A DNA stretch of 63,557 bases, the filler included, from Bilabrum cf. latius (Eukaryota): NCBI GenBank assembly GCA_965178125.1. It is 3 parts of 3 records of this genome, joined end to end, with 100 filler letters (N's around TTAATTAATTAA, not from the genome) between each part and the next. Parts side by side here need not be neighbours in the genome. Positions count along the whole stretch, not along the records: positions 26,803 to 53,341 come from CBCXTV010000032.1; 2 more parts are not named here. One strand, 5' to 3'. Shown piece after piece: positions 26,803-53,341 of the stretch. The notes under the pieces were generated by a model. The model saw only the letters and a list, made by a program, of their open reading frames with translations. It searched no databases and had not been told where the DNA came from. The number at the start of each line of letters is the position of its first letter. Position 1 is the first letter of the stretch. The position numbers and the translations under genes were made by a program.

Positions 26803-27181
26803 TGCACACCCTCCACCATGCTCTGAAACATAGACTCTCTCTGCCGCGGAAACCTCGTGTGTGCATCAGGAAACTTATTTTGTGACGATGAACTTGTAAC
26901 CATGCGCATAGAAAAAGAAGTGATATGAACGGATGTTGGGGACATGCTGCCAAAAATGCCTCGGATCCGACTGCCTGCCGCAGGCCCTTGCCATGCAACA
27001 CCCAGATTCCGACACACTGGAAGCGGGCCAGGGAGACCAAGCTTTTTCACCGGACAGGCGCCACGAGTCCCCAACCCCGCACTGTGGCGCGCCCGAATTG
27101 AATGGGCGAGTTTCCCGCGCCGCGGGGCCACGACACCCCGGTGGGCTCGGCCACACCCGGGATGTTGACGGTGAGCTACGC

Positions 27182-27969
27182 TCACTGGCCCGCAAGATCC
27201 GCCTCATCCGAATCCGACTCCTCGGAGGAAGTTCCGAATGGGCCGGGCAGCTCCATGATCCAGGGGGCGGCAGCAGCCCAAAGATCCGCATCCATGGTCT
27301 TCAAACTTTGCCCCGCGCCGAGATCGCGCGACGTCTCATAGCACACCCTGTCGCCGCCCTCGTAAGGCGTCTCCAGCTCGAGCGTCATCTTCACGGCTCC
27401 TCGGAGATGCCCGGACTGTATGGCTTCGAGAACCATATTTTTCGGCGACTTGCTCTTCATGATGCAATCACGGCATCGAGCACCTCCTTTTTTCCCCCGC
27501 GGCCTCGGGTCCTCGGATGCGATGGCGCGGCGGACGCGGCGACGCACACGACTCAAGGCGGGATTGTTGAAAGCCGCGATGGACTTCTGGACGCCGCACA
27601 TCTCGCAGCTGACGTCCGAAAGCGCCCAATCGTCAAAAAGGGACTCATACCAGGAATCCTCTGATCCGTGCTTTTGCGGCCTGCGGACGAGCCGGCATGC
27701 GGGATGCAGAGAGGTCGCTGCCAAGTCCCAAACGACCCTGCCATCGCTGCCTGCAGGATGCAGGCCGGCGCCCGGACCGGCCCGGGCCCGGGCCCGGGCC
27801 CGGGCCCCGGGCCCGGGCCCCGGGCCCCGGGCCCCGGCCCGGCCCGGGCCCGGCCCCCGGCCCCGGCCCCGGGAACGGCCGGCCTGGCCCGGCCCCGGAC
27901 CTGGCCCGGGCGCAGCCCGGGGGCATTCGGCTGGCCCTTCTGCGAACCTTCTCCGCTGCCCGAAGCCAT
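27182..27969 (-). CDS. Conserved element zinc-finger protein; predicted join(27969-27948, 27750-27182)
   Basis: Homologous to 8060-8911. An AAG|GT...CAG|G intron at 27751-27947, which contains the GGGCCC tract, joins the ATG at 27969 in frame. Confidence 0.65.
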
Positions 27970-28606
27970 GGCAGCCTCGAGGACACGCAGGTCAGTGACT
28001 GGCGGCAGCGGTGGGCCCGGCCACTTCCGCTCAGTGCTGCTCGCAAATGCGCTTCGGACACAAGGACAATCGGGAAAATGCATGTACCGGGGCATCCCTG
28101 GCGCACTGAAGCACTGAATGCCGGCTTGGAAACACTGTGACCCGGCAAGGGGTTTTGCTGTGGCATCCTGTGAACCTCATCCCAGACTGGTGCGGGGCGG
28201 CTTTTGCTCCTAGTTCCGGTCCCCATTTCCGGGGCCGGAAAACGGCCCCAAAACAAGCACGAAAAAAACCGAAACTGACTGTGCGGATCGCTCTTTTTCG
28301 GCACGTTTTCTGGGCCGGAAAACGGCCCCGGAAACGGGGACCCGACTTCCAAGCATCTCGGGCGTCGGATCCAAGCCAAATTTCGTCTCGCACAGGAGGC
28401 GGTTTTCATCACCGGGCGCCACCACCGGCTACAACCTCGCCCACTCACTGAGCCGCCCACACACAGCAACAGCGAACCGGGACGAGAGAGATGAGAGACG
28501 AGAAAGAGAGCGACAGAAACAAGGACAGATGAGAGAAGAGCGAAGAGACGAAGAGAGAGGAGGAAAGAGATCGGAGAGACAAGAGGCGAGGCAGGAGAGA
28601 CTGGAC

Positions 28607-28748
28607 GCCCGCCCACCCGCCCGCCCGCCCGCCCGCCCCGCCCGCCCGCCCGCCCGCCCGCCCGCCCGCCCGCCCGCCCGCCCGCCCGCCCGCCCGCCCG
28701 CCCGCCCGCCCGCCCGCCCGCCCGCCCGCCCGCCCGCCCGCCCGCCCG
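28607..28748. repeat. (CCCG)n microsatellite; second copy at 43267-43408
   Basis: Direct reading. It is preceded by a GA-rich tract at ~28480-28600. Confidence 0.95.
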
Positions 28749-28919
28749 CGCCAGCGCCCCGTGCCTCCTGGGGCTAAATGATTGGGTTCACCAGACTTTT
28801 TGCTGCTACTTTCAGGAATTGACAACTGCTGCAGTCCGCATGATTCACCTCAAAAGATGTGGTGCTTTGCGCGCGCGTGATCCTGCCGCAACTTCCCCTT
28901 CCGTAAGTATGCCCGGACT

Positions 28920-30365
28920 GGGCCCGGCCCGGCCCCAGGCCCGGCCCGGGCCCGGGCCCGGGCCCGGCCCGGGCCCGGGCCCCGGCCCGGGCCCCGGCCC
29001 GGGCGCAGGCCCAGGCCCGGGCCCGGGCTCGGGCCGGGGCTGGGCCCGGGCCGGGCCCGGGCCCGGGCCCCGCCCGGGCCCAGGCCCGGGGCCCGGGCCC
29101 GGGCCCGGGCCGGGCCCGGGCCCGGCCCGGGCCCAGCCCCGGCCCGAGCCCGGGCCCGGGCCTGGGCCTGCGCCCGGGCCGGGGCCCGGGCCCGGCCCGG
29201 GCCCGGGCCCGACCCGGTCTCGGGCCCGGCCAGGGCCCGGCCCGGGCCCGGGCCCGGGCCCGGGCCCGGGCCCGGGCCCCAGCCCGGGCGCAGGCCCAGG
29301 CCCGGGCCCGGGCTCGGGCCGGGGCTGGGCCCGGGCCGGGCCCGGGCCCGGGCCCGGGCCCCGCCCGGGCCCGGGCCCGGGCCCGGGCCCGGGCCCGGGC
29401 CCGGGCCCGGGCCCGGGCCCGGGCCGGGCCCGCCGCGCCCGGCCGGGCCCAGCCCCGGCCCGAGCCCGGGCCCGGGCCTGGGCCTGCGCCCGGGCCGGCG
29501 CCCGGGCCCGGCCCGGGCCCGGGCCCGGCCCGGTCCCGGGCCCGGCCAGGGCCCGGCCCGGGCCCGGGCCCGGGCCCGGCCGGGGCCCGGGCCCGGGCCC
29601 GGCCTGGGCCCGGGCCCGGGCCAGGGCCCGGGCCTGGGCCCGGGCCCGGGCCCGGCCCGGGCCCGAACCCGGGCCCGGGCCTGGGCCCGGGCCCGGGCCT
29701 GGGCCCGGCCCGGCCCGGGCCCGGGCCCGGCCCGGGCCCGGGCCCGAGCCCGGCCCGATTAGGTTCACCAAACATTCTGCTGCAACGTTCAGGAACTGAC
29801 AGCTCCTGCAGTCCGCAGTATTCACCTCACATCATCGGTGCAAGAATGTCGATCAAGTGCCTTGCGCGCGTATGATCGTTCCGCAGGTTCACCGACGGAA
29901 GCCTTCTTACGAGTTCTCGTTCCTCCAACTGAGTATGGTCGCCACGCCTTCTGCTGCACTTTTCACGAACTGACAATTGCTGCAGTCCGCACTCTTCACC
30001 GGCTCACATTATCGGTAGGAGCGACGGGCGGCGTGTGCAAAACGCAATCAGCACGAGCGGGCCCGGCCCGGGCCCGGGCCCGGCTCGAGCCCGGGCCCGG
30101 GTCCGGGCCCGGGCCCGGGCCCGGGCGCGGGCCCGGGCCCGGGCCCCGGGCCCGGGCCCGGCCCGGGCCCGGGCCCGGCCCGGGCCCGGCCTGGGCCCGG
30201 GCCCGGGCCAGGCCCGGGCCCGGGCCCGGGCCCGGACCCGGGCCTGGGCCCGGGCCCGGGCCCGGGCCCGGGCCCGGGCCCGGGCCCGGGCCCGGGCCCG
30301 GGCCCGGGCCCGGCCCGGGCCCGGGCCCGGCCCGAGCCCGGGCCCGGGCCTGGGCCCGGGCCCGG
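28920..30365. repeat. (GGGCCC)n self-complementary microsatellite tracts (28920-29757 and 30058-30365); repeated at +14,660
   Basis: Direct reading. Further tracts at ~27775-27900, 31170-31440 and 33980-34280. Confidence 0.95.
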
Positions 30366-30902
30366 ACATCTCACATCATGGGCGCAAGAATGTCGATCAA
30401 GTGCTTCGCGCGCGTATGATCCTTCCGCTGGCCCGGCCCGGGCCCGAGCGCGCGGTGCGCGCCCACCGGGCCTCAGCGCGCGCCGCCAGCGCGCGCGACG
30501 CACGCGCGCGCGGAGCGCCCGCGCGCGCGGGGGCCCCGGCCCGCGGCCGGGGCTCCGGGGCCCCGGCCCGCGCCGCACCCCGCCCGCCCCGACCCGGGTG
30601 GGCCCAGCCACTCCCCGGCTCCTCCCGGGTGGGCCCGGCCACTCCCCGGCCGGACGCCCGCATCCGACCCCCTGCCCCCCCACCCCCCCTAAAATTCGAG
30701 AAGGCGAAACACTTCCCTTAGGATCTACTCGAGGAGGCGTGCACCTGGCTGCTTCTCGCGTGGCGTTTTTTCCCGGCCGCGGCGCTCCCGCGGCGTTTTT
30801 TGGTGCTTTCCCCCATACTGTCGTGCGATTTCGTGCCGTTTTTTTCTGGCTTTCCCCCATATTGTCGTGCGATTTTGGCCTTTTTTCCTCCTAAGCCTGC
30901 CC

Positions 30903-31140
30903 GGTTCGGAGTCGGGGGCTGTTTACCTTTAAAAAATTTTAATAGTTAGAGCGCCCCGCAACTCCGAATCGTAGGGGTAGTTCGGAGTCGGCTCGGAGTC
31001 ACTCGGAGTCGCTACCCCTCTAGCTCGGAGTCCGATTTGGGGGTCCAAAACTGGGCTTTTTTGCCACTTTCAGAAAAAAAAACCCAAGCGAAAACGCGTT
31101 TTTTTGGCTCAAAAATCGCAAAAAAATGGGGAAAATGGAC
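30903..31140 (-). promoter_or_regulatory. Putative rolling-circle origin of Element 2
   Basis: Imperfect stem TTCGGAGTCGGGGGC (30905-30919) / GCGCCCCGCAACTCCGAA (30951-30968) around an AT-rich loop that reads AACTATTAA on the minus strand (30947-30939). TCGGAGTC iterons at ~30906, 30982, 30993, 31003 and 31025. Confidence 0.6.
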
Positions 31141-32022
31141 ACCCCGCGGCGTCTTCTCGCAAGAGACGTGGCCCCGGGCCGCGTCGGGGCCGGGTCTGGG
31201 CCGGGCCCGGGCCCGGCCCGGGCAGGGCCCGGGTCCGGGCCTCGTCCGGCCCGGGCCCGGGCCCCGGCAGGGCCCCGGCCGGGTCTGGGAGGGGCCGGGG
31301 CCGGGCCCGGGCAGGGCCCCGGCCTCGCCCGGGCGGGGTCTGGGACGGGCCGGGGCCGGGCCCGGGCCGAGTCTGGGACAGCCCGGGCCGGGTCTGGGAC
31401 GGGCCGGGGCCGGGCCCGGGCCCCGGCAGGGCCCGGGCCGGGTTTGCAACGCGGTGACATGCTCGAGGCGGCGGGGGGGGGGGGGGGGGGGTATGGCCGG
31501 GCGGGGGGGAAGGCGGGCGGGCGGGCGCACGGGGGACGCGGGCGGGCGGCCGGGCGGGCTGGCCGGGCGGGGGCGGGCGGGGGGCGGGCGGGCGGGGAGC
31601 GGGCGGGCGGGGGGGGGGGGGGGGGGCTGGGCGGGCGGGGGCCCGGTCCGGACCGGGCCCCGGCCCCGACGGGGGCCTGGGCCGGGTCCGGGCCGGTCCC
31701 GAACCGGGGCCCGGGCTGGGCTTCGGCCGGCAACAGGAACGCACATTCGCCTCGCACTGTTCGCATGGACTCCGCCGCCTCCGAGGCCGCACCACAAACT
31801 CGCACAACTCTCTGCGACGACTCCCGCTCCCCCGCCCTGTGAGCGCTGGCTCATGCTCGGCGTCGGAGGCCCCCGGTGCGCCGCTCATGCTCGACCCACG
31901 CATGCGGCGCGAACAAAAAATATGCAGATCCGGAGAGATAAACATCACTGGGGCTTGGCAAATCGGGCGGGGGTGTGGGCACGGCCACTCCACCCCCCTG
32001 CGCTTCGCCTCGCGGCCGGGAC

Positions 32023-33420
32023 CTAGTCTTCCCATATCTTGACCTTGATGTCCACCGGGCATGAATTCTCCTCGACCCAAGCGCGCGCTTCCATGTCCAC
32101 CGCGCCGCACCCTTTCCAGAACTCGTTGCTACGGACATGTAGGTTACTCAAACGCTGTATACACAGCCGTTCATGTAGGTTACTCAAACGCTGTATACAC
32201 AGCCGGTTCCCGGAACTTTCAAGACCAAGACAGAAATTGATGGCATCCATTGGATGGTTTCCGGACGAGATCATAAAAACGCAATGCGTACCATGATCAA
32301 CGAAAAAAGTCTATAAGGAAAACAGACCCCGCCCGCCCGCCGACAGGAAAAAACAACCGGCAAATATGTGAGGTTGCAAACGGCTGCGGCTCCTTGTCCC
32401 TTCCCGGCGCGACCCGACGGCGCTTGGCGACGAGGCTCTGGCAGTACTGGGACCTGCCGAGCGGCTGCATCCGGCTGAACCACTTGAATGGCTTCCGCCC
32501 GACAGCTTCGACAATTAGCTGCCGGCGTGGTGACCGGGCCGTCTGCAAAGCGGCTGGCCGAGCCGCTTGGCGCAGCGTTTGTGCCGCCGCCTCCCCCTTG
32601 GCCGCCGGAAGCAGAGGCGACAGAGTCTGACCCCCTTGTGCACGGAAACAAAAGCGCGGTCCCTGGCCTCGCCTACTCGCGGATGCTCAGCGCTCCAAGC
32701 GGGGGCTCGGCCACACCGCCTACGCGCGCGGAACCACTTGAAGATCAACGCCCGACAGCTTCGACAATTAGCTGCCAGCGTGGTGACCGGGCCGTTTGCA
32801 AAGCGCCTGGCAATTGCAGGCGAAGGCTCCGTTCGGGGGGGACGACCTGCTGGCGAATTCCGCGCCTTCTGCTACCCCAACGACAAATTCGATGTCGTCC
32901 GCGGCCGCGCGCCGCAGCGTATGAATCTGCAGCAGGGCCGCGGGTATGATAAGAGGCGGGAGTGGCGGATCCTATGACGCGTGTGGTGGTGTGTGGCTGT
33001 GGGTGTGCGTGTGACAGGAAAAAATCTCTCGACTATCAGCGTCCGAAGACGGAGCCCCCAGGGAGGCATCTATCAAATTATGATCTCGTCGACAAACAAT
33101 CAAAATGGATGCCTCAGCAACGGGACCACATAACAGAATTGTGCAATGCAAATGACTGCTGTTTCCAATTTGCAATTCTTGGAGCACTGATCAGGGTCGC
33201 CCGCAGGCATGCCAACTACCATCTGACGAAAAACAACCCCGCCATGCAGAGCAAGGTGAGCGACCGGCTTCACACTGCATGCACACGCAGGAATGAATAA
33301 AACGCGCTCCACTCGAAGGCAATTTGACTCACCCACATACCAGATGCCTGCAGACGAAGCGAAACATACAAAATCGCAATGCGCTGGGGGCAAGACGATG
33401 GCCAAAAAAACTCCGATGTG
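32023..33420 (-). pseudogene. rep: Decayed rep homolog; helicase core missing
   Basis: Colinear remnants in shifting frames: FIHSCVCM (cf. LVHFHVCM), DDIEFVV (cf. RAIDFHI), RKPFKW (cf. LRPFKV), VYSV* (cf. AYSVW) and SNEFW...ARAWVEENSCPVDIKVKIWED (cf. TNSW...DREWLDNNCTKVEVKDRLY). Confidence 0.65.
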
Positions 33421-34458
33421 TTTGACCGAGCGTTCATTTGTTCAGTGGCACCAGACCGCGAACGGATCCCCCCCCGTCCAAGGGGGGGGCCACAACCCCA
33501 GACGCCTGGTCCGCGCCTGCAGCACGACCGCGAAGAAAAGGACAGTCCGTGCAAACCGCCGGCAAAGCGTCGCCGCACAAGCTGCTGTGCTGGCAACACC
33601 ACTGCAACAGCGGGGGGCCCGGCGTGGTTCGAACGATGGGGGGGCACGGCCACTCTCCTGGCAGATCCGTCGGGGTGCGGCCAGGCAAGCACCTCCACCT
33701 GGTCGCAGCCGGAGGCGGACGCATCGCCATCCGCGTCCCCGAAGGGGAGTGCGGACCAACCGTACGCTTCGGCATCAGGAGCAGGGACTACCGTCTCGAC
33801 GCCGGACGCCATCGGCGCCTGAGGATTCGTATCGCATTCGAGGGTTGAGGGCCGCGCAAAATGCGCTCCTGGCCGGAAGGTATGCGGCACAGACGGAACA
33901 AAGAGGCTGCATGTGGCATGCCATGACAACCTGGACACACTTTCACGAATGCGCAGCAGCTGCACGAATGGGATGTTCGGGCCGGGGCCCGGGCCCGCCC
34001 CCGGGCCCCGGCCCCGGCGCCGGCCCGGGCCTGGGCCGGGGCCCCGGCCCCGGCCCCGGCCCCGGCCCGGGCCCCGGCCCCGGCCCCGGCCCGGGGCCGG
34101 GGCGGAGGATGAGGTGAGAGTGACCTGGCGCACAGTGGCACACAAGAGTGCCATGACGAAAACGGACACATTCTGAGAAACGCTCAGCATGCCGGGCCGG
34201 GCCCCCGCGCCGGGCCCGGGCCGAGCCCGGCCCCGGCCCGGCCCGGGGCCCGGGCCGGGGCGCGGGCCCGGGCCCGGGCCCGGGAGGCGCGCGGCGAAGC
34301 GGTCGGGCGGGCACCGCCCGGCCGCAGCCAGGGGCCCCGGCGCGCAAACGGGGGATCCCACAACATGCTTTCGCCAAGGGTCTTGTCGCTTCTCGGCTCA
34401 CATGCGCGCGCTGTGAACTCCCACTCTCTTTCCGGCAGCCGAGGGCAATGCAGGCAGG

Positions 34459-36364
34459 TCAGTACATCGCGCCGGACCTTGTCCGGCGAGGGGCGGGGGG
34501 CTCGGCCACTCCTGCCCTGGCGCCCGCGGAGGCGCCCGCGGAACTCGCCGCGACAGGACCGGACTTTGCTCTTGCGAGCGGCGGCCCCAGTCGCCTGGCG
34601 ACCGGGACAGGGCGAGCCACAACGGCAGCAGCCCCTTCAAGCCGTCTCCGAAGGAAGCGCCGAGGGGGCCCAAGAAGAGACTGAAGCATGAGCGGAGCCG
34701 GTCGCCCCAGGAGCTCCGCGAAATCCTCCGGCGACGGCGGCGCCAGAGGCAGCGGCAAGGTCGTACCCAAAGCATCAGAGATGCGCGATCGGAGAGTCGC
34801 GCCGGGTCCGCGCAAGCCGTTGGCCCACATGCGCCCCGCGCTGTCTGTGTCCACCACATGCTGCCGCATCGCGGCCGCAGCGATATCGATCCACCGCCCT
34901 GGAGGCAAAACGCCGTCCGCGCTCTCTGCCCGACAAGTCGTCTGCCCGGAGCTGATGGCGGCTTTGAGGTGTTGGAAGACATGCGTGTCGAGCGGCTGCA
35001 ACAGCCAGGTCATGGATGCCGGGACGAGCGCGACGAAAAGGCCCAGGCGCGCGATGTGGTTGACGACTTGCCACGACAAGTGCTGCGGTGCGCAGTCCAT
35101 GACCAGGACCACTGGCCGACCAGGATGTACCTCCCTGCAAGCTCGACGAACCCGGGTCAGGATGCCGCAAAAGACCGGCCCGGTCACCCAGCCCTTCGTG
35201 CCAGGGATGTGCACCAATGGGGCGGCCAAGACCGCCAGTCTCTCTCGATCGGCTCGTGTCATGCGCTCAGTGTGTGGCAGGAGGATCTGGGGCAAGCGCG
35301 CATGGACCTCGGGGTCGTCGGCAATCGCAGCTACATAGGTCATGTGGCCTCTCGCTTCCCGCAGACTGATGCGCGCATACCGCTGCCGACCCACAGCGGC
35401 TAACTTCCCCACACAATGGCCTCGTCTTGGAGCCATTCCTCGCGAAATGGCCGTTTCGTCGAGGTTGACGACAATGTAGGGCTCGTCCCGAAGGACCCCG
35501 AAGCGCAGCCACTGGCACCACTGGAAGAAGGCCGCGACCTGGGTCGCCCAGGAACGGAAATCTCGGCTGATTTTTCCGAAAACAGGTCCCCGTTTTTGGG
35601 GCCGTTTTTTGGCCCCAAAAATGGGGACCCCCTATTATGCGGACAATAGGGTGGCCCCATTTTTGGGGCCGTTTTTCGGCCCCAAAAATGGGGCCAAAAA
35701 CTGCCCCAAGAATCGGCCCAGAATTTCGCCCACGGACCTTCCGGCTCTGCATCTCGGGGGCTACAGCGGAGCGCCAAGGCATGATCCGCAACCGGACGTG
35801 CCACCTCTTCCGAAACCTCAGCGCCCAATTCTTTCTGAACCCGCCCCGCCGCAGTTGCGCCACAAAAGCGGGGTACCGGCCGCGCCGCTCTGCGACTGGC
35901 CAGTTCTCGACCAACCACTTCGCCACCTCCGCGACTTTCGGCGAGGAGCCCCTCGTGTTAGCATCGTTGATGCGGAGGACGACACGAGCCTCAGCGACGA
36001 CCATCGCGGCCCGCCAAGCGAGCCGACTCTGGACTGCTGCCTCCAAGTGGCCCGTCGCGACGCTCACCACACTCGCCAGCGCGAGGGCGGGCGGTGCGGG
36101 GGCCCTCGGCCCGCAACCCGGGCGCGCGCGCTTGCCACATCGATTTTGCATGACATGAGTAGCGATGAGATCCCATTCACTTCCCTCATGGGACAGGCTT
36201 TGGGCGACGCGCAAGAGCACCCAGCGAGAAAACGACAGTCGCTTTGGCAAGGCATGCTCCCTCGCTCGCCTCGTTGCTCGCCGCCCTTCTCTCTGCAGCT
36301 CTTGCACAATTTCCTTCTGCGCCCTGATCATCGCTTCTAGCTCTCTGCGGGCGACGGCAGGCAT
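34459..36364 (-). CDS. pogo/Tigger-like DDE transposase, 568 aa; join(36364-35738, 35538-34459)
   Basis: Removing a 199-bp AAG|GT...AG|G intron gives SRK-VAAFFQW...VVNLDET...LVMDCAPQH...VPASMTWLLQPLDTHVF, colinear with the intronless 2092-3729 protein. Confidence 0.88.
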
Positions 36365-36549
36365 GCTGGTGAGGGCAGGCTGACGCGAGGAGCTTGGGCC
36401 CAAGGGCGCTGCATGCCCGTCCCTGCTTCACCATGTGGCCCGCCCACCCAGGTGGGCCTCTCCACCGCGACCCCTTTCTTACACACACTCATCGTCTTCC
36501 TCTTACCCTGAGCGACATGCGTCCCACACCTAACTCAAGACATGGTGTG

Positions 36550-36760
36550 CCTGAGGCGTCGCCTGGCGTCGACGACAGCAGCGCTGACACGAGACCGGGC
36601 GGTCTTCCTGAGCGCCACCGTCATCTTATGCAGGGCTGTTTTGGTCTCTTGGCGCGCCTCCCGAATCTTCGCCGATGCGCCGATGTGCTTCACTCATGCG
36701 CTCCATCTCCGCTACCATGACTGAGTCGCCTCCGGGCGTCAAGACTGTTACCTGTGGGGG
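36550..36760 (-). pseudogene. Paralogous fragment of the first exon of the coiled-coil gene
   Basis: KHIGASAKIREARQETKTALHKM versus KHIATVAKIREARQEARKAMNKM at 37660-37730. Confidence 0.6.
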
Positions 36761-37256
36761 CTGGCCAAACCAGAGACACGAAACCCGGACAAGAATGTTA
36801 CTGGACGGGGGAATGAAGCCATGTCACACTCACTTTTAGTTGTCCTCTGACGCTTAGTCTTAGTCCTAGCCCTACACGCACTCGCCTTTGCACTCGACTG
36901 CGGACAACGTTGGCACGCTCATGCACACAGGTGTCACTCACGGAACGCAGGAGAAGATGCGCAGACGCTTATCTGGAACGGCCGCGCCTCCTTGTTGGAA
37001 AGATCTTGCTCTGAGTCTGACGCCTTGTGCAGGGAAACAAAAGCGCGGTCCCTGGCCTCGCCGTACTCGCGGATGCTCAGCGCTCCAAGCGGGGGCTCGG
37101 CCACTCCGCTTTGTTTGCTTCACTCGCGCCCGGTGCGGGAAATGCCCGAAGACTCGAGCCCTGGCGCCTCACCTCTCAGTGGGCCGGGAAAAAAAGGCCG
37201 CCCTCTCGGGGCGGACCGGTGCCGACATCTCGGGACTGGCGACTGTCGCCGGTTCC

Positions 37257-37800
37257 TCAATCAGCGCGCTCCTCTTCCTCCTCTTCCTCGCGGGGCCCGT
37301 CAGGGCCGGGGTGGACCTCGCTGCTGCTGGCGGCGCCTGTCGCCGTCGAAGGCCCACTGCCGGTTGACGCCGCGCCCTGGGCTGGCGCCACCTCTGCGGC
37401 GCGCGCCGCTGCAACGGCCTCGAGCTCCGGCGCGGTCCACTTCTTGGCCGCAGCGATCTCGAGCAGATCTTCCAAATCTAGTCTCGTCGCCCTGCGCATG
37501 AGGCGTTTGTGGCGCCGGTTCCCCTTCGCTATTGTCTTTGGGGGCGACATGGGGATGACACCTAGCTCATGACATGGACTGTCTGGGGCCGGACCCTGGC
37601 TCCGGGACGGAAGTGCTGACATGAGACGGGGCGCTCCCTCTTGAGCTCCACCCCCATCTTATTCATGGCCTTTCTGGCCTCTTGCCGCGCCTCCCGAATC
37701 TTCGCCACAGTGGCGATGTGCTTCCCTGATCCGGCGCATCTCGCCTTCCGGGCTGAGTCGGCATCGGGCCTCCGGACTCGAATCGGAGGCGGGTGGCAAA
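37257..37800 (-). CDS. Small basic coiled-coil protein, probably two exons; start uncertain
   Basis: AKIREARQEARKAMNKMGVELKR and GNRRHKRLMRRATRLDLEDLLEIAAAKK lie in different frames ~110 bp apart. Together they match the 12619-13323 protein. Confidence 0.55.
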
Positions 37801-38336
37801 AGCAAAAGCCGGAAACCCGCTGAAGAATGGCTGAGGTGGGAAGCATTTGGCCACTAGCCTCGTGTCCGCAGTACATACACACAGTCGTCACTTCCACGCT
37901 CGCCACAGAACCCTGGGAGGCCACGAACCTCGGCCGCTAGGGCCCGCTCACTCAAACGTTCCGGCCCTGGCCCCAGGGCCCGGCCCCATGTCTGACGGAG
38001 AACCCTGGGTGGCCACGAAGGTGGGCCGCCCGGGGCCGCACCACCACACGATCAGGCCCAGGGCCCGGGGCCGGACCGGGCCCGGCTAGGGCCCGGGGCC
38101 TGGCCACTGGCCGGGCCCACATGGGGTCGACCAGACCCATGGCAAATGCGACGCATGCTGGTATGACAAGGCACTCGAATGACTGATGCTTTCTGCCACC
38201 AGAACCCGCGCGCCCCGGCAACCTCAGAGATGTTGCGGCGCGCGACCGGCGCGCACTTGCAAGTGAAAGGGCGCGGCAACGGCCAAGGAGTGGACGCAGG
38301 GGCACGGCCACTCTGCATCAAAACGGGCGCCTGGGC

Positions 38337-42629: not shown

Positions 42630-45562
42630 GGCAGCCTCGAGGACACGCAGGTCAGTGACTGGCGGCAGCGGTGGGCCCGGCCACTTCCGCTCAGTGCTGC
42701 TCGCAAATGCGCTTCGGACACAAGGACAATCGGGAAAATGCATGTACCGGGGCATCCCTGGCGCACTGAAGCACTGAATGCCGGCTTGGAAACACTGTGA
42801 CCCGGCAAGGGGTTTTGCTGTGGCATCCTGTGAACCTCATCCCAGACTGGTGCGGGGCGGCTTTTGCTCCTAGTTCCGGTCCCCATTTCCGGGGCCGGAA
42901 AACGGCCCCAAAACAAGCACGAAAAAAACCGAAACTGACTGTGCGGATCGCTCTTTTTCGGCACGTTTTCTGGGCCGGAAAACGGCCCCGGAAACGGGGA
43001 CCCGACTTCCAAGCATCTCGGGCGTCGGATCCAAGCCAAATTTCGTCTCGCACAGGAGGCGGTTTTCATCACCGGGCGCCACCACCGGCTACAACCTCGC
43101 CCACTCACTGAGCCGCCCACACACAGCAACAGCGAACCGGGACGAGAGAGATGAGAGACGAGAAAGAGAGCGACAGAAACAAGGACAGATGAGAGAAGAG
43201 CGAAGAGACGAAGAGAGAGGAGGAAAGAGATCGGAGAGACAAGAGGCGAGGCAGGAGAGACTGGACGCCCGCCCACCCGCCCGCCCGCCCGCCCGCCCCG
43301 CCCGCCCGCCCGCCCGCCCGCCCGCCCGCCCGCCCGCCCGCCCGCCCGCCCGCCCGCCCGCCCGCCCGCCCGCCCGCCCGCCCGCCCGCCCGCCCGCCCG
43401 CCCGCCCGCGCCAGCGCCCCGTGCCTCCTGGGGCTAAATGATTGGGTTCACCAGACTTTTTGCTGCTACTTTCAGGAATTGACAACTGCTGCAGTCCGCA
43501 TGATTCACCTCAAAAGATGTGGTGCTTTGCGCGCGCGTGATCCTGCCGCAACTTCCCCTTCCGTAAGTATGCCCGGACTGGGCCCGGCCCGGCCCCAGGC
43601 CCGGCCCGGGCCCGGGCCCGGGCCCGGCCCGGGCCCGGGCCCCGGCCCGGGCCCCGGCCCGGGCGCAGGCCCAGGCCCGGGCCCGGGCTCGGGCCGGGGC
43701 TGGGCCCGGGCCGGGCCCGGGCCCGGGCCCCGCCCGGGCCCAGGCCCGGGGCCCGGGCCCGGGCCCGGGCCGGGCCCGGGCCCGGCCCGGGCCCAGCCCC
43801 GGCCCGAGCCCGGGCCCGGGCCTGGGCCTGCGCCCGGGCCGGGGCCCGGGCCCGGCCCGGGCCCGGGCCCGACCCGGTCTCGGGCCCGGCCAGGGCCCGG
43901 CCCGGGCCCGGGCCCGGGCCCGGGCCCGGGCCCGGGCCCCAGCCCGGGCGCAGGCCCAGGCCCGGGCCCGGGCTCGGGCCGGGGCTGGGCCCGGGCCGGG
44001 CCCGGGCCCGGGCCCGGGCCCCGCCCGGGCCCGGGCCCGGGCCCGGGCCCGGGCCCGGGCCCGGGCCCGGGCCCGGGCCCGGGCCGGGCCCGCCGCGCCC
44101 GGCCGGGCCCAGCCCCGGCCCGAGCCCGGGCCCGGGCCTGGGCCTGCGCCCGGGCCGGCGCCCGGGCCCGGCCCGGGCCCGGGCCCGGCCCGGTCCCGGG
44201 CCCGGCCAGGGCCCGGCCCGGGCCCGGGCCCGGGCCCGGCCGGGGCCCGGGCCCGGGCCCGGCCTGGGCCCGGGCCCGGGCCAGGGCCCGGGCCTGGGCC
44301 CGGGCCCGGGCCCGGCCCGGGCCCGAACCCGGGCCCGGGCCTGGGCCCGGGCCCGGGCCTGGGCCCGGCCCGGCCCGGGCCCGGGCCCGGCCCGGGCCCG
44401 GGCCCGAGCCCGGCCCGATTAGGTTCACCAAACATTCTGCTGCAACGTTCAGGAACTGACAGCTCCTGCAGTCCGCAGTATTCACCTCACATCATCGGTG
44501 CAAGAATGTCGATCAAGTGCCTTGCGCGCGTATGATCGTTCCGCAGGTTCACCGACGGAAGCCTTCTTACGAGTTCTCGTTCCTCCAACTGAGTATGGTC
44601 GCCACGCCTTCTGCTGCACTTTTCACGAACTGACAATTGCTGCAGTCCGCACTCTTCACCGGCTCACATTATCGGTAGGAGCGACGGGCGGCGTGTGCAA
44701 AACGCAATCAGCACGAGCGGGCCCGGCCCGGGCCCGGGCCCGGCTCGAGCCCGGGCCCGGGTCCGGGCCCGGGCCCGGGCCCGGGCGCGGGCCCGGGCCC
44801 GGGCCCCGGGCCCGGGCCCGGCCCGGGCCCGGGCCCGGCCCGGGCCCGGCCTGGGCCCGGGCCCGGGCCAGGCCCGGGCCCGGGCCCGGGCCCGGACCCG
44901 GGCCTGGGCCCGGGCCCGGGCCCGGGCCCGGGCCCGGGCCCGGGCCCGGGCCCGGGCCCGGGCCCGGGCCCGGCCCGGGCCCGGGCCCGGCCCGAGCCCG
45001 GGCCCGGGCCTGGGCCCGGGCCCGGACATCTCACATCATGGGCGCAAGAATGTCGATCAAGTGCTTCGCGCGCGTATGATCCTTCCGCTGGCCCGGCCCG
45101 GGCCCGAGCGCGCGGTGCGCGCCCACCGGGCCTCAGCGCGCGCCGCCAGCGCGCGCGACGCACGCGCGCGCGGAGCGCCCGCGCGCGCGGGGGCCCCGGC
45201 CCGCGGCCGGGGCTCCGGGGCCCCGGCCCGCGCCGCACCCCGCCCGCCCCGACCCGGGTGGGCCCAGCCACTCCCCGGCTCCTCCCGGGTGGGCCCGGCC
45301 ACTCCCCGGCCGGACGCCCGCATCCGACCCCCTGCCCCCCCACCCCCCCTAAAATTCGAGAAGGCGAAACACTTCCCTTAGGATCTACTCGAGGAGGCGT
45401 GCACCTGGCTGCTTCTCGCGTGGCGTTTTTTCCCGGCCGCGGCGCTCCCGCGGCGTTTTTTGGTGCTTTCCCCCATACTGTCGTGCGATTTCGTGCCGTT
45501 TTTTTCTGGCTTTCCCCCATATTGTCGTGCGATTTTGGCCTTTTTTCCTCCTAAGCCTGCCC

Positions 45563-45800
45563 GGTTCGGAGTCGGGGGCTGTTTACCTTTAAAAAATTTT
45601 AATAGTTAGAGCGCCCCGCAACTCCGAATCGTAGGGGTAGTTCGGAGTCGGCTCGGAGTCACTCGGAGTCGCTACCCCTCTAGCTCGGAGTCCGATTTGG
45701 GGGTCCAAAACTGGGCTTTTTTGCCACTTTCAGAAAAAAAAACCCAAGCGAAAACGCGTTTTTTTGGCTCAAAAATCGCAAAAAAATGGGGAAAATGGAC
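45563..45800 (-). promoter_or_regulatory. Putative origin of Element 2, second copy
   Basis: Copy of 30903-31140 at +14,660. Confidence 0.6.
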
Positions 45801-46682
45801 ACCCCGCGGCGTCTTCTCGCAAGAGACGTGGCCCCGGGCCGCGTCGGGGCCGGGTCTGGGCCGGGCCCGGGCCCGGCCCGGGCAGGGCCCGGGTCCGGGC
45901 CTCGTCCGGCCCGGGCCCGGGCCCCGGCAGGGCCCCGGCCGGGTCTGGGAGGGGCCGGGGCCGGGCCCGGGCAGGGCCCCGGCCTCGCCCGGGCGGGGTC
46001 TGGGACGGGCCGGGGCCGGGCCCGGGCCGAGTCTGGGACAGCCCGGGCCGGGTCTGGGACGGGCCGGGGCCGGGCCCGGGCCCCGGCAGGGCCCGGGCCG
46101 GGTTTGCAACGCGGTGACATGCTCGAGGCGGCGGGGGGGGGGGGGGGGGGGTATGGCCGGGCGGGGGGGAAGGCGGGCGGGCGGGCGCACGGGGGACGCG
46201 GGCGGGCGGCCGGGCGGGCTGGCCGGGCGGGGGCGGGCGGGGGGCGGGCGGGCGGGGAGCGGGCGGGCGGGGGGGGGGGGGGGGGGCTGGGCGGGCGGGG
46301 GCCCGGTCCGGACCGGGCCCCGGCCCCGACGGGGGCCTGGGCCGGGTCCGGGCCGGTCCCGAACCGGGGCCCGGGCTGGGCTTCGGCCGGCAACAGGAAC
46401 GCACATTCGCCTCGCACTGTTCGCATGGACTCCGCCGCCTCCGAGGCCGCACCACAAACTCGCACAACTCTCTGCGACGACTCCCGCTCCCCCGCCCTGT
46501 GAGCGCTGGCTCATGCTCGGCGTCGGAGGCCCCCGGTGCGCCGCTCATGCTCGACCCACGCATGCGGCGCGAACAAAAAATATGCAGATCCGGAGAGATA
46601 AACATCACTGGGGCTTGGCAAATCGGGCGGGGGTGTGGGCACGGCCACTCCACCCCCCTGCGCTTCGCCTCGCGGCCGGGAC

Positions 46683-48080
46683 CTAGTCTTCCCATATCTT
46701 GACCTTGATGTCCACCGGGCATGAATTCTCCTCGACCCAAGCGCGCGCTTCCATGTCCACCGCGCCGCACCCTTTCCAGAACTCGTTGCTACGGACATGT
46801 AGGTTACTCAAACGCTGTATACACAGCCGTTCATGTAGGTTACTCAAACGCTGTATACACAGCCGGTTCCCGGAACTTTCAAGACCAAGACAGAAATTGA
46901 TGGCATCCATTGGATGGTTTCCGGACGAGATCATAAAAACGCAATGCGTACCATGATCAACGAAAAAAGTCTATAAGGAAAACAGACCCCGCCCGCCCGC
47001 CGACAGGAAAAAACAACCGGCAAATATGTGAGGTTGCAAACGGCTGCGGCTCCTTGTCCCTTCCCGGCGCGACCCGACGGCGCTTGGCGACGAGGCTCTG
47101 GCAGTACTGGGACCTGCCGAGCGGCTGCATCCGGCTGAACCACTTGAATGGCTTCCGCCCGACAGCTTCGACAATTAGCTGCCGGCGTGGTGACCGGGCC
47201 GTCTGCAAAGCGGCTGGCCGAGCCGCTTGGCGCAGCGTTTGTGCCGCCGCCTCCCCCTTGGCCGCCGGAAGCAGAGGCGACAGAGTCTGACCCCCTTGTG
47301 CACGGAAACAAAAGCGCGGTCCCTGGCCTCGCCTACTCGCGGATGCTCAGCGCTCCAAGCGGGGGCTCGGCCACACCGCCTACGCGCGCGGAACCACTTG
47401 AAGATCAACGCCCGACAGCTTCGACAATTAGCTGCCAGCGTGGTGACCGGGCCGTTTGCAAAGCGCCTGGCAATTGCAGGCGAAGGCTCCGTTCGGGGGG
47501 GACGACCTGCTGGCGAATTCCGCGCCTTCTGCTACCCCAACGACAAATTCGATGTCGTCCGCGGCCGCGCGCCGCAGCGTATGAATCTGCAGCAGGGCCG
47601 CGGGTATGATAAGAGGCGGGAGTGGCGGATCCTATGACGCGTGTGGTGGTGTGTGGCTGTGGGTGTGCGTGTGACAGGAAAAAATCTCTCGACTATCAGC
47701 GTCCGAAGACGGAGCCCCCAGGGAGGCATCTATCAAATTATGATCTCGTCGACAAACAATCAAAATGGATGCCTCAGCAACGGGACCACATAACAGAATT
47801 GTGCAATGCAAATGACTGCTGTTTCCAATTTGCAATTCTTGGAGCACTGATCAGGGTCGCCCGCAGGCATGCCAACTACCATCTGACGAAAAACAACCCC
47901 GCCATGCAGAGCAAGGTGAGCGACCGGCTTCACACTGCATGCACACGCAGGAATGAATAAAACGCGCTCCACTCGAAGGCAATTTGACTCACCCACATAC
48001 CAGATGCCTGCAGACGAAGCGAAACATACAAAATCGCAATGCGCTGGGGGCAAGACGATGGCCAAAAAAACTCCGATGTG
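46683..48080 (-). pseudogene. rep: Decayed rep, second copy
   Basis: Copy of 32023-33420 at +14,660. Confidence 0.65.
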
Positions 48081-49118
48081 TTTGACCGAGCGTTCATTTG
48101 TTCAGTGGCACCAGACCGCGAACGGATCCCCCCCCGTCCAAGGGGGGGGCCACAACCCCAGACGCCTGGTCCGCGCCTGCAGCACGACCGCGAAGAAAAG
48201 GACAGTCCGTGCAAACCGCCGGCAAAGCGTCGCCGCACAAGCTGCTGTGCTGGCAACACCACTGCAACAGCGGGGGGCCCGGCGTGGTTCGAACGATGGG
48301 GGGGCACGGCCACTCTCCTGGCAGATCCGTCGGGGTGCGGCCAGGCAAGCACCTCCACCTGGTCGCAGCCGGAGGCGGACGCATCGCCATCCGCGTCCCC
48401 GAAGGGGAGTGCGGACCAACCGTACGCTTCGGCATCAGGAGCAGGGACTACCGTCTCGACGCCGGACGCCATCGGCGCCTGAGGATTCGTATCGCATTCG
48501 AGGGTTGAGGGCCGCGCAAAATGCGCTCCTGGCCGGAAGGTATGCGGCACAGACGGAACAAAGAGGCTGCATGTGGCATGCCATGACAACCTGGACACAC
48601 TTTCACGAATGCGCAGCAGCTGCACGAATGGGATGTTCGGGCCGGGGCCCGGGCCCGCCCCCGGGCCCCGGCCCCGGCGCCGGCCCGGGCCTGGGCCGGG
48701 GCCCCGGCCCCGGCCCCGGCCCCGGCCCGGGCCCCGGCCCCGGCCCCGGCCCGGGGCCGGGGCGGAGGATGAGGTGAGAGTGACCTGGCGCACAGTGGCA
48801 CACAAGAGTGCCATGACGAAAACGGACACATTCTGAGAAACGCTCAGCATGCCGGGCCGGGCCCCCGCGCCGGGCCCGGGCCGAGCCCGGCCCCGGCCCG
48901 GCCCGGGGCCCGGGCCGGGGCGCGGGCCCGGGCCCGGGCCCGGGAGGCGCGCGGCGAAGCGGTCGGGCGGGCACCGCCCGGCCGCAGCCAGGGGCCCCGG
49001 CGCGCAAACGGGGGATCCCACAACATGCTTTCGCCAAGGGTCTTGTCGCTTCTCGGCTCACATGCGCGCGCTGTGAACTCCCACTCTCTTTCCGGCAGCC
49101 GAGGGCAATGCAGGCAGG

Positions 49119-51024
49119 TCAGTACATCGCGCCGGACCTTGTCCGGCGAGGGGCGGGGGGCTCGGCCACTCCTGCCCTGGCGCCCGCGGAGGCGCCCGCG
49201 GAACTCGCCGCGACAGGACCGGACTTTGCTCTTGCGAGCGGCGGCCCCAGTCGCCTGGCGACCGGGACAGGGCGAGCCACAACGGCAGCAGCCCCTTCAA
49301 GCCGTCTCCGAAGGAAGCGCCGAGGGGGCCCAAGAAGAGACTGAAGCATGAGCGGAGCCGGTCGCCCCAGGAGCTCCGCGAAATCCTCCGGCGACGGCGG
49401 CGCCAGAGGCAGCGGCAAGGTCGTACCCAAAGCATCAGAGATGCGCGATCGGAGAGTCGCGCCGGGTCCGCGCAAGCCGTTGGCCCACATGCGCCCCGCG
49501 CTGTCTGTGTCCACCACATGCTGCCGCATCGCGGCCGCAGCGATATCGATCCACCGCCCTGGAGGCAAAACGCCGTCCGCGCTCTCTGCCCGACAAGTCG
49601 TCTGCCCGGAGCTGATGGCGGCTTTGAGGTGTTGGAAGACATGCGTGTCGAGCGGCTGCAACAGCCAGGTCATGGATGCCGGGACGAGCGCGACGAAAAG
49701 GCCCAGGCGCGCGATGTGGTTGACGACTTGCCACGACAAGTGCTGCGGTGCGCAGTCCATGACCAGGACCACTGGCCGACCAGGATGTACCTCCCTGCAA
49801 GCTCGACGAACCCGGGTCAGGATGCCGCAAAAGACCGGCCCGGTCACCCAGCCCTTCGTGCCAGGGATGTGCACCAATGGGGCGGCCAAGACCGCCAGTC
49901 TCTCTCGATCGGCTCGTGTCATGCGCTCAGTGTGTGGCAGGAGGATCTGGGGCAAGCGCGCATGGACCTCGGGGTCGTCGGCAATCGCAGCTACATAGGT
50001 CATGTGGCCTCTCGCTTCCCGCAGACTGATGCGCGCATACCGCTGCCGACCCACAGCGGCTAACTTCCCCACACAATGGCCTCGTCTTGGAGCCATTCCT
50101 CGCGAAATGGCCGTTTCGTCGAGGTTGACGACAATGTAGGGCTCGTCCCGAAGGACCCCGAAGCGCAGCCACTGGCACCACTGGAAGAAGGCCGCGACCT
50201 GGGTCGCCCAGGAACGGAAATCTCGGCTGATTTTTCCGAAAACAGGTCCCCGTTTTTGGGGCCGTTTTTTGGCCCCAAAAATGGGGACCCCCTATTATGC
50301 GGACAATAGGGTGGCCCCATTTTTGGGGCCGTTTTTCGGCCCCAAAAATGGGGCCAAAAACTGCCCCAAGAATCGGCCCAGAATTTCGCCCACGGACCTT
50401 CCGGCTCTGCATCTCGGGGGCTACAGCGGAGCGCCAAGGCATGATCCGCAACCGGACGTGCCACCTCTTCCGAAACCTCAGCGCCCAATTCTTTCTGAAC
50501 CCGCCCCGCCGCAGTTGCGCCACAAAAGCGGGGTACCGGCCGCGCCGCTCTGCGACTGGCCAGTTCTCGACCAACCACTTCGCCACCTCCGCGACTTTCG
50601 GCGAGGAGCCCCTCGTGTTAGCATCGTTGATGCGGAGGACGACACGAGCCTCAGCGACGACCATCGCGGCCCGCCAAGCGAGCCGACTCTGGACTGCTGC
50701 CTCCAAGTGGCCCGTCGCGACGCTCACCACACTCGCCAGCGCGAGGGCGGGCGGTGCGGGGGCCCTCGGCCCGCAACCCGGGCGCGCGCGCTTGCCACAT
50801 CGATTTTGCATGACATGAGTAGCGATGAGATCCCATTCACTTCCCTCATGGGACAGGCTTTGGGCGACGCGCAAGAGCACCCAGCGAGAAAACGACAGTC
50901 GCTTTGGCAAGGCATGCTCCCTCGCTCGCCTCGTTGCTCGCCGCCCTTCTCTCTGCAGCTCTTGCACAATTTCCTTCTGCGCCCTGATCATCGCTTCTAG
51001 CTCTCTGCGGGCGACGGCAGGCAT
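49119..51024 (-). CDS. pogo-like transposase, second copy (intron 50199-50397)
   Basis: Copy of 34459-36364 at +14,660. Confidence 0.88.
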
Positions 51025-51916
51025 GCTGGTGAGGGCAGGCTGACGCGAGGAGCTTGGGCCCAAGGGCGCTGCATGCCCGTCCCTGCTTCACCATGTGGCC
51101 CGCCCACCCAGGTGGGCCTCTCCACCGCGACCCCTTTCTTACACACACTCATCGTCTTCCTCTTACCCTGAGCGACATGCGTCCCACACCTAACTCAAGA
51201 CATGGTGTGCCTGAGGCGTCGCCTGGCGTCGACGACAGCAGCGCTGACACGAGACCGGGCGGTCTTCCTGAGCGCCACCGTCATCTTATGCAGGGCTGTT
51301 TTGGTCTCTTGGCGCGCCTCCCGAATCTTCGCCGATGCGCCGATGTGCTTCACTCATGCGCTCCATCTCCGCTACCATGACTGAGTCGCCTCCGGGCGTC
51401 AAGACTGTTACCTGTGGGGGCTGGCCAAACCAGAGACACGAAACCCGGACAAGAATGTTACTGGACGGGGGAATGAAGCCATGTCACACTCACTTTTAGT
51501 TGTCCTCTGACGCTTAGTCTTAGTCCTAGCCCTACACGCACTCGCCTTTGCACTCGACTGCGGACAACGTTGGCACGCTCATGCACACAGGTGTCACTCA
51601 CGGAACGCAGGAGAAGATGCGCAGACGCTTATCTGGAACGGCCGCGCCTCCTTGTTGGAAAGATCTTGCTCTGAGTCTGACGCCTTGTGCAGGGAAACAA
51701 AAGCGCGGTCCCTGGCCTCGCCGTACTCGCGGATGCTCAGCGCTCCAAGCGGGGGCTCGGCCACTCCGCTTTGTTTGCTTCACTCGCGCCCGGTGCGGGA
51801 AATGCCCGAAGACTCGAGCCCTGGCGCCTCACCTCTCAGTGGGCCGGGAAAAAAAGGCCGCCCTCTCGGGGCGGACCGGTGCCGACATCTCGGGACTGGC
51901 GACTGTCGCCGGTTCC

Positions 51917-52460
51917 TCAATCAGCGCGCTCCTCTTCCTCCTCTTCCTCGCGGGGCCCGTCAGGGCCGGGGTGGACCTCGCTGCTGCTGGCGGCGCCTGT
52001 CGCCGTCGAAGGCCCACTGCCGGTTGACGCCGCGCCCTGGGCTGGCGCCACCTCTGCGGCGCGCGCCGCTGCAACGGCCTCGAGCTCCGGCGCGGTCCAC
52101 TTCTTGGCCGCAGCGATCTCGAGCAGATCTTCCAAATCTAGTCTCGTCGCCCTGCGCATGAGGCGTTTGTGGCGCCGGTTCCCCTTCGCTATTGTCTTTG
52201 GGGGCGACATGGGGATGACACCTAGCTCATGACATGGACTGTCTGGGGCCGGACCCTGGCTCCGGGACGGAAGTGCTGACATGAGACGGGGCGCTCCCTC
52301 TTGAGCTCCACCCCCATCTTATTCATGGCCTTTCTGGCCTCTTGCCGCGCCTCCCGAATCTTCGCCACAGTGGCGATGTGCTTCCCTGATCCGGCGCATC
52401 TCGCCTTCCGGGCTGAGTCGGCATCGGGCCTCCGGACTCGAATCGGAGGCGGGTGGCAAA
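51917..52460 (-). CDS. Small coiled-coil protein, second copy
   Basis: Copy of 37257-37800 at +14,660. Confidence 0.55.
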
Positions 52461-52996
52461 AGCAAAAGCCGGAAACCCGCTGAAGAATGGCTGAGGTGGG
52501 AAGCATTTGGCCACTAGCCTCGTGTCCGCAGTACATACACACAGTCGTCACTTCCACGCTCGCCACAGAACCCTGGGAGGCCACGAACCTCGGCCGCTAG
52601 GGCCCGCTCACTCAAACGTTCCGGCCCTGGCCCCAGGGCCCGGCCCCATGTCTGACGGAGAACCCTGGGTGGCCACGAAGGTGGGCCGCCCGGGGCCGCA
52701 CCACCACACGATCAGGCCCAGGGCCCGGGGCCGGACCGGGCCCGGCTAGGGCCCGGGGCCTGGCCACTGGCCGGGCCCACATGGGGTCGACCAGACCCAT
52801 GGCAAATGCGACGCATGCTGGTATGACAAGGCACTCGAATGACTGATGCTTTCTGCCACCAGAACCCGCGCGCCCCGGCAACCTCAGAGATGTTGCGGCG
52901 CGCGACCGGCGCGCACTTGCAAGTGAAAGGGCGCGGCAACGGCCAAGGAGTGGACGCAGGGGCACGGCCACTCTGCATCAAAACGGGCGCCTGGGC

Positions 52997-53341
52997 CTAG
53001 CGAGCGCTCTCTTCCCAGATCTTCACCGCGCGGGCAAGGGCCTCCTCTCGGATCTGCCATTCCCGCGACCAAAAGGTGCAGGCCTCGCACACCTGGCAGT
53101 TACTTGGTGTCAGGCTCATGGGGGTCAAGTTCGCCACGCCAGTGAGCCGGAACGCAGGGCAGCTCGTCGCCACCTCCGCGGCAACTCTCGCGCAGGCCAT
53201 GCTCGTGTGCCGCCCCGACTTGCACAGGAGCACCACCGTCAGCTGTGTCCCGTTTGCCGTCCCCTCGCGCATGGCCGCCAGCATCGCGAGGGCCGCGGGC
53301 TGCACGACCTGCCGGAAGTTGGCATGGCACACGATGGGGCC
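52997..53341 (-). CDS. 3' end of the glycosyltransferase/RapZ-C-like gene, second copy, truncated by the gap
   Basis: Copy of 38337-38681. Confidence 0.7.
   Translation of the reverse strand, partial: GPIVCHANFRQVVQPAALAMLAAMREGTANGTQLTVVLLCKSGRHTSMACARVAAEVATSCPAFRLTGVANLTPMSLTPSNCQVCEACTFWSREWQIREEALARAVKIWEESAR

Follow-up and report, generated by a model that had tools for sequence, protein, structure and literature searches.

Pogo-like and other Tc1-mariner transposons, rolling-circle replicons such as the CRESS-DNA viruses (their single-stranded DNA is circular and encodes Rep) and pCRESS plasmids, the Replitrons and Helitrons, the Polintons (Mavericks) with Teratorn, and the streptococcal element TnGBS are the described systems closest to a 14,660-bp repeat unit that we studied in assembly GCA_965178125.1, deposited for Bilabrum cf. 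latius. The window, that is, the whole stretch of 63,557 nucleotides analysed, joins three separate contigs with N spacers at 26,703-26,802 and 53,342-53,441: C74 (1-26,702), C75 (26,803-53,341), which carries the unit, and C107 (53,442-63,557). C-numbers denote contigs of this assembly, L-numbers (L111, L113, L117, L122, L128, L131, L132 and L135) metagenome loci and X-numbers public runs. With a probability of about two in three, C75 represents 1.81 passes of the assembler through an abundant pogo-like transposon with joined ends and a defective Rep. The transposon would belong to a family coding for both a transposase and a Rep protein, would have passed through a circle and would be multiplied in circular or concatemeric form, probably by factors acting in trans.

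With pogo/Tc1-mariner elements C75 shares a DDE_1 domain with a D..D35D triad, inverted ends and a CTG/CAG junction of the form predicted for religated ends; a possible TA target is seen at one end of one relative. The pogo DD35D element Passer is 1.6-4 kb long with one open reading frame (ORF) (PMC9976928), whereas the elements here are 14-27 kb long and carry cargo and a Rep gene. Sleeping Beauty circles are rare dead ends (PMC6943129); here the joined form dominates. Complete members of the family resemble CRESS-DNA viruses, pCRESS plasmids and Rep68 of adeno-associated virus (AAV) in having a Y1-type HUH Rep with a superfamily 3 (SF3) helicase (PMC8406172, PMC10288648), and resemble CRESS viruses and plasmids also in a probable circular or concatemeric form and a candidate stem-loop origin. 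C75 keeps the decayed 3' end of this Rep alone, and the gene is full in sister units and relatives. Unlike CRESS viruses, the elements are far larger and possess a DDE transposase, terminal repeats and predicted introns, and no capsid was found with Pfam or PHROGs among the proteins scanned.

Replitrons and Helitrons are likewise eukaryotic mobile DNA with an HUH Rep, and Helitrons use a circular intermediate (PMC10288648, PMC6431247). On the other hand, the Y1 Rep of Replitrons lacks a helicase (PMC10288648) and Helitrons combine a Y2 Rep with a superfamily 1B (Pif1) helicase, while the Rep of our family has 450-770 residues with SF3 motifs. Both groups use Rep itself for transposition and have no DDE enzyme; here the DDE gene is separate. 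Polintons and Teratorn are large transposons that unite a DDE enzyme, inverted ends and replication genes of their own (PMC6431247), but they rely on a protein-primed DNA polymerase (PolB) or on herpesvirus genes and often have capsids, in place of a pogo transposase and a rolling-circle Rep. Neither a protein-primed PolB nor a retroviral-type integrase was present among the ORFs scanned. TnGBS offers the likeness of DDE excision to a joined-end circle followed by plasmid-like replication. It differs in being bacterial, with a Mutator-like transposase, a 6-10-bp spacer derived from the flanks and conjugation (PMC3942029), whereas C75 is eukaryotic and pogo-like, with an overlapping 3-nt junction and no transfer genes seen.

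In the open-access literature, Repbase not included, we found no account of a eukaryotic pogo transposase paired with an HUH-SF3 Rep, and a term search of PMC9651163 gave no mention of CRESS or single-stranded DNA elements in Symbiodiniaceae. The element lacks a defining feature of each eukaryotic family tested, Replitrons and Helitrons included. The transposase-plus-Rep family may represent a class of self-copying mobile DNA not described before. Circles excised by cut-and-paste transposons are usually held to be dead ends, while here the joined form is dominant and apparently inherited; this suggests that capture of a rolling-circle Rep can turn an excised circle into a replicon.

The 26,539-bp contig C75 (26,803-53,341) makes 1.81 turns of the unit. 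Positions 26,803-38,681 equal 41,463-53,341 at an offset of 14,660 in one unbroken run of 11,879 bp with 100% identity, so that features in the first interval come again 14,660 bp on, and only 38,682-41,462 is present once. Chance is excluded as the origin of this repeat. The original prediction had described a constant offset over about 11.9 kb, GGGCCC, CCCG and G tracts included, and a contig with no flanking non-element DNA. Both descriptions hold: the tracts lie inside the identical run, and both contig ends fall within the unit. Apart from about 1.5 kb of simple repeats, the whole unit was searched against the assembly at the DNA level, and C75 was the sole contig to carry it.

The same prediction took the identical microsatellites as a sign of a very recent duplication, for which we found no support, as successive turns of sister contigs are 94-100% alike and public runs differ from C75 at about 500 sites. 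Exactness is expected from an assembler overlap and carries no information on the age of the duplication. The run variants reveal a diverged multi-copy family, and the exact overlap is most simply, and probably, one consensus read twice by the assembler, and it dates nothing. The caution is general: duplications are not datable from exact terminal overlaps. The other part of that proposal, a circle or concatemer, gained ground from an end-to-end junction, from the same layout in sister contigs and from a bridged wrap point.

The junction consists of two imperfect terminal inverted repeats of ~70 bp each, joined at 28,210-28,350 around an axis at 28,280, with CTG on the plus strand, CAG on the gene strand and no TA between the ends. 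It is read a second time at 42,870-43,010 (axis 42,940). From these junctions and the TA-flanked end of L128, the full element would run end to end from 28,279 to 42,941 on the minus strand, i.e., 14,660 bp plus the shared trinucleotide. The junction hairpin has a z-score of -5.9, and 0 of 200 shuffles were as stable. Among 1,329 centres of the form AC(A/T)GT, 16 scored at least 35 and the others at most 24; the 16 occur one per unit in C55, C59, C73, C75, C89, C101, C102, L111, L128 and L135, and the fetched parts of C50, C52 and C61 hold one more each. Nine sister contigs, two of them also Rep-deleted, thus have the same junction as C75, for a total of ten contigs and three metagenome loci.

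An apparently integrated end was observed in L128, where a lone arm reading CAGT follows TA and unrelated DNA (TA plus CAGT at 214-219); 16,960 bp further on, the two ends are joined through one CAG without TA (17,178). No right end matching this TA-flanked left end was found. The assembly shows no integrated end of C75, whose end pairs are joined in 2 of 2 cases, and for the C101 family it has 11 of 11 end pairs in the joined form. A lone terminal-repeat match in C57, considered as an integration site, turned out to be a junction with a homopolymer indel, and the single match to the terminal-repeat pattern in a viral collection was apparently due to chance. For Sleeping Beauty, religated precise excision ends are expected to give CTG or CAG via a central T:T mismatch (PMC6943129, Fig. 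6B legend). The gene-strand variant is fixed per family (CTG in C50, C52, C57, C101 and C102; CAG in C59, C73 and C89), which is what inheritance of the joined form would predict.

The transposase gene of C75 lies on the minus strand. Exon 1 (35,738-36,364, 209 codons) is colinear with the N-terminus of the homologue P0010, a predicted phase-0 GT-AG intron (35,539-35,737) has the same insert in P0010 and P0016, and exon 2 (34,459-35,538) codes for a pogo-like DDE_1 domain (PF03184, E 3.5e-6, above the cut-off) with an intact D..D35D triad (D28, D149 and D185 of exon 2). A weak Mos1 match was also obtained (E 0.03). The intron holds a palindrome resembling the inner part of the terminal repeats. 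We had considered this palindrome as a miniature inverted-repeat transposable element disrupting the gene, but an intron is the better account since it is kept in homologues; the palindrome is possibly a self-regulatory binding site. A predicted intron at the same place, with a like palindrome, was seen across families (window 35,539-35,737; L128:8,458-8,597; C73; C101). In the 26-27-kb sister family, C74 codes for a pogo-like DDE transposase at 2,095-3,900 on the minus strand (PF03184, E 1.8e-11).

A metagenome scan for transposase relatives gave 262 matches, of which 80 loci were examined. In 10 of the 12 metagenome loci with at least 2.5 kb of sequence beyond the transposase, a Rep gene follows it on the same strand, and the same ten Rep loci were recovered by a profile built without them. 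The family Rep has the HUH motif, the tyrosine, Walker A and B and motif C. It is CRESS-like by features, its best fold matches are AAV2 Rep68 and Vientovirus Rep, and 693 Rep representatives were collected at E < 1e-30. A PDB sequence search with the Rep profile gave no match, and Pfam gave neither a Rep-family nor a Helitron match for the family Rep. L128 and L135 share the gene order glycosyltransferase, RapZ-C, small ORF, transposase and Rep, which is partly kept in L117, L131 and L132, while in L113 and L122 the cargo is inverted after Rep. L113 has 5.6-kb mirror-image ends (1-5,634; 11,793-17,426) around transposase and Rep; L113 and L122 may stand for a subfamily whose inverted repeats are long, for hairpin intermediates or for chimeras formed by amplification.

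C74 carries an intact HUH-SF3 Rep (9,160-11,481, minus strand). In C75, at the Rep position of relatives, only a decayed 3' end from the motif C region to the stop was detected (32,023-32,139, minus strand), with 10.3 bits and E 6.8e-5 against the profile of the relatives' Reps, compared to -3.3 bits for the best of 61 shuffled or reversed controls; a looser likeness extends, by eye, to about 32,330. A search for an intact Rep in the unit gave E 0.26 with the first profile, and the profile of closer relatives found the remnant only. The rolling-circle amplification in the original prediction would therefore have to be supplied in trans. Rep is deleted, wholly or in part, from two further units: C101, of the C102 type, has none of it, and C89, of the C73 type, lacks its 5' part, which brings the Rep-deleted units to three. 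In several families, intact Rep and transposase are present in every unit.

A candidate replication origin was noted at 30,908-30,975 on the minus strand as an AT-rich loop in a GC stem. Four families have one copy of this element per unit; three have it upstream of Rep, C75 has it downstream of the remnant. It is kept in 3 of 3 Rep-deleted units; C59 and C61 gave no match. The predicted fold is weak in C75 (z -2.0, 7 of 200 shuffles) and strong in C73 (z -9.1). Its core resembles the geminivirus origin. The hairpin could be a replication origin and equally a promoter, and we treat it as a lead only.

Other contigs of the assembly are periodic in the same manner. Identity between turns was 100% in C101 (5,947 bp), 99.99% in C73 (13,720 bp), 99.3-99.9% in C59 (13,713-13,717 bp), 94-99.5% in C89 (~11,100 bp) and 98-99% in C55 (~21,400 bp). 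Units measure ~14,650-14,690 bp in C50, C52 and C57, ~15,100 bp in C61 and ~27,200 bp in C44, in which about 15 units follow one another over 361 kb. C72 with C80, as well as C102, close as complete circular permutations. The 26-27-kb family with Rep and transposase, 99% identical, comprises C74, C107, C44-C49, C53, C56, C65-C72, C78-C80 and C93-C108. The family of C50, C52, C57 and C102 is unrelated to C75 (~30% transposase identity), yet has a unit of 14,640-14,690 bp; the near-equal lengths may reflect coincidence, size selection or a size constraint. The otherwise unrelated C52 (1-1,709; 14,561-16,356) and C55 have in common a 1.8-kb block, 92% alike, with half-copies of terminal repeats, which suggests exchange between elements.

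Ten public runs from six studies with six organism labels contained 0.61-0.78 of the words of 34,400-41,462; one of them is only ~153 Mb and one may be the source sample. No RNA run was among those listed, which tells neither for nor against transcription. Sediment runs with a word share below 0.2 were left out of the comparison. Four runs covered 34,300-42,400 in 29-30 of 30 bins and varied from C75 at about 500 sites (40 listed and 476 more), many of them mixed within a single run. The C75 element is a diverged multi-copy family. Contigs from X10 (309 bp with zero differences), X11 and X1, three runs each of a different study, bridged the wrap point between units, 41,462/41,463; the listed pieces of X4 did not bridge it. 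Single-contig depth on the unit was 10-20 in the ~153-Mb run and reached at least ~9,000 in X1. Such depths do not give copy numbers, and the summed Logan depths (4e4-4e5 in X1) were not used for that purpose. Still, one copy per genome of gigabase size would hardly produce them. X1 is a 2.9-Gb run with extreme depth on the unit and may be an enriched or amplified library.

The source of this DNA is most likely a co-sequenced, dinoflagellate-like eukaryote of which only high-copy DNA appears to have been assembled, as judged from rDNA likeness and the distribution of matches. The main organism of the assembly is seen in C1-C42 (0.54-2.85 Mb where probed, with TTAGGG repeats at the start of C1), and C12 carries its rDNA array, with an 18S of 1,700 nt. 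None of the 86 transposase and 96 Rep matches listed, from totals of at least 86 and at least 96, fell in C1-C43. C95 has a complete second rDNA, 76-86% identical to that of the main organism, and its 18S we take to be dinoflagellate-like. Four scrambled fragments of the 18S 3' end and internal transcribed spacer 1 (ITS1) in the C75 unit (28,774-28,849; 29,757-29,826; 29,825-30,058; 30,370-30,431; minus strand) are 81-90% identical to C95, which the ITS1-containing ones match too, compared to ~70% or no match for the rDNA of the main organism. In two Symbiodinium species a homologue of Rep has been annotated. Because the DNA is probably that of the co-sequenced organism, depth relative to the mean of the assembly, as the original prediction proposed, is the wrong comparison. 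Most small contigs examined are probably not from the named small-genome organism.

Several other origins were set aside. The unit is not an rDNA unit: Rfam had no match in the window, and rRNA is limited in the C75 unit to the four short degenerate fragments. C12 matched via the 18S fragment alone and, its array being that of the main organism, was rejected as the source. For a prokaryotic origin, just two short contigs of metagenome-assembled genomes, with 27-30% identity, were found among 185,579 genomes, and no spliced-leader relic occurred among 220 loci or in the contigs. The C12 rDNA (0.94-1.03 Mb) has 9,545-bp units in which a short divergent 18S is linked to a 5S gene of like orientation. 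Short fragments like large-subunit (LSU) rRNA were seen in three other families (C89:7,362-7,461; C55:11,176-11,220; window 25,992-26,039), so rDNA capture is not peculiar to C75. C111, a 38.4-kb contig with tRNAs and 24% GC in its first 10 kb, is probably a mitochondrial genome.

The amplified-transposon reading of C75 can be put as a series of steps. An integrated copy would lie between TA dinucleotides with ends starting CAGT, as seen in L128 and supposed for C75. The DD35D transposase would excise it with 3-nt overhangs, by analogy with Sleeping Beauty, and ligation of the overhangs would give a circle with one CTG/CAG core and no TA; the junction is observed, the enzymology presumed. The HUH-SF3 Rep of complete members, whose linkage to the transposase is observed, would copy the circle by rolling-circle replication into circles and head-to-tail concatemers. 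C75, having lost most of Rep and kept the junction, the transposase and the candidate origin, would need a helper Rep. We lean slightly towards present copies including at least some free circles or concatemers.

A number of points weigh against this reading. Of a circle, single-stranded DNA, a transcript or enzyme activity, none was seen, and an excised Sleeping Beauty circle cannot undergo further transposition (PMC6943129). The sole TA-flanked end lies in a metagenome contig assembled from short reads; its two copies match at 90%, and this contig may be a mosaic. The two ends of C75 agree in the first four bases and then partly, hairpins with other centres are also common, the 26-27-kb C74 family has no symmetric junction, and the run comparison ended at 42,400, 540 bp short of the junction. 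Two of the 12 roomy loci lack Rep, many of the ten with it are close kin, and the TM-scores of the Rep fold search were low (~0.2). The assembly yielded no close relative of C75 with a Rep, so the helper is presumed. The dinoflagellate label of C95 is tentative. Finally, the ~15 units in 361 kb of C44 and the unlike successive units in C55, C59 and C89 fit chromosomal arrays equally; such long multi-unit contigs do not decide between circle and array, because assembly may likewise run on from one variant circle into another.

The chief alternative is a macrosatellite in the chromosomes: a joined circle or concatemer would have entered them in a single ancient insertion and then, as tandem arrays, been expanded and homogenised by recombination like rDNA, with no free circles now and no need of the unit for Rep. 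The slight differences between successive units in C55, C59 and C89, the many units in a row in C44-C49, the resemblance of L128 to an integrated multimer, the rDNA fragments and microsatellites within the unit and the large tandem arrays known in Alexandrium (PMC3229502) all suit it, and the fixed junction variants fit array inheritance as well. We judge it unlikely, given that several families keep intact Rep and transposase in every unit, that the same two cis elements are kept in three Rep-deleted forms, and that C72/C80 and C102 are complete circular permutations. The two remaining rivals are weak. A capsid-encoding dinoflagellate virus, CRESS- or parvovirus-like, with C75 as a defective genome, would explain the Rep features and AAV Rep68 fold, the several units near 14.65 kb and the long mirror ends of L113, and defective forms are typical of such viruses. 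It is improbable all the same: profile scans with Pfam and PHROGs (29 and 23 proteins) gave no capsid match, IMG/VR had no transposase relative and only weak Rep matches of 2.2-2.8 kb, and the units span 5.9-27 kb, with predicted introns and transposon ends. Least probable is an assembly artefact, a single-copy or dispersed linear element falsely joined and duplicated. The exact overlap is itself assembler-like and the raw reads of the assembly lay outside the analysis, but mistaken joining of a linear single-copy element is very improbable with a wrap point bridged in three studies and a junction of specific biochemical form repeated across contigs and loci.

A wider proposal built on the amplified transposon is offered tentatively, at less than an even chance. 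Dinoflagellates would carry widespread nuclear transposon-plasmids, pogo-like elements that are excised, circularised and multiplied extrachromosomally by their own HUH-SF3 Rep to hundreds or thousands of copies, bear cargo such as a glycosyltransferase and spawn Rep-less satellite circles like C75. If true, a eukaryotic group would be added beside Helitrons, Replitrons and Polintons. It could account for part of the genome size and repeat content of dinoflagellates, and would provide a native replicon and transposase for a transformation-resistant group.

The conserved genes of the C75 unit are all on the minus strand, with at least five ORFs and the Rep remnant in 14,660 bp. A cargo gene with an N-terminal domain of unknown type and a GT-A glycosyltransferase domain occupies 39,320-41,300 (ends approximate) and has 30-39% identity to genes of L117, L122, L128, L131 and L135. 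It is a single ORF in the relatives and has a frame change in C75, explained by a probable intron and an indel at a point where the runs differ. The model of a relative's protein matched GT-A folds with Z 13.6 and a root-mean-square deviation of 2.7 over 169 residues, at a model pLDDT of only 42. The nearest Atlas clusters of the GT-A protein (L128:2,581-4,857; window 39,320-41,300) are phage GT2-like proteins. The idea that it might modify DNA bases such as hydroxymethyluracil is a conjecture. The C74 family has a 921-residue ORF at 13,968-16,730 (minus strand) with a weak glucosyltransferase match (phrog_854, E 0.0015), which suggests that different families carry different glycosyltransferases.

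The other ORFs of the unit, also on the minus strand, are smaller. A RapZ C-terminal-like cargo ORF (38,337-38,920; PF22740, E 4e-4, below the cut-off) has syntenic homologues, and a small basic, probably coiled-coil ORF (37,257-37,580, core 37,434-37,532) is conserved upstream of the transposase. None of the sister contigs tested has a homologue of the small ORF at 27,185-27,760, which carries a weak Stc1-like cysteine motif (Pfam E 0.014-0.024, below the cut-off). Arrays of CCCG, GGGCCC and G-rich sequence span 28,606-31,721 (28,606-28,749; 28,911-29,757; 30,058-30,365; 31,173-31,721), and smaller simple-sequence arrays lie at 27,779-27,911, 33,978-34,101 and 34,192-34,284. We also observed a 288-bp segment pair, 72% identical, at 37,544-37,829 and 36,512-36,797.

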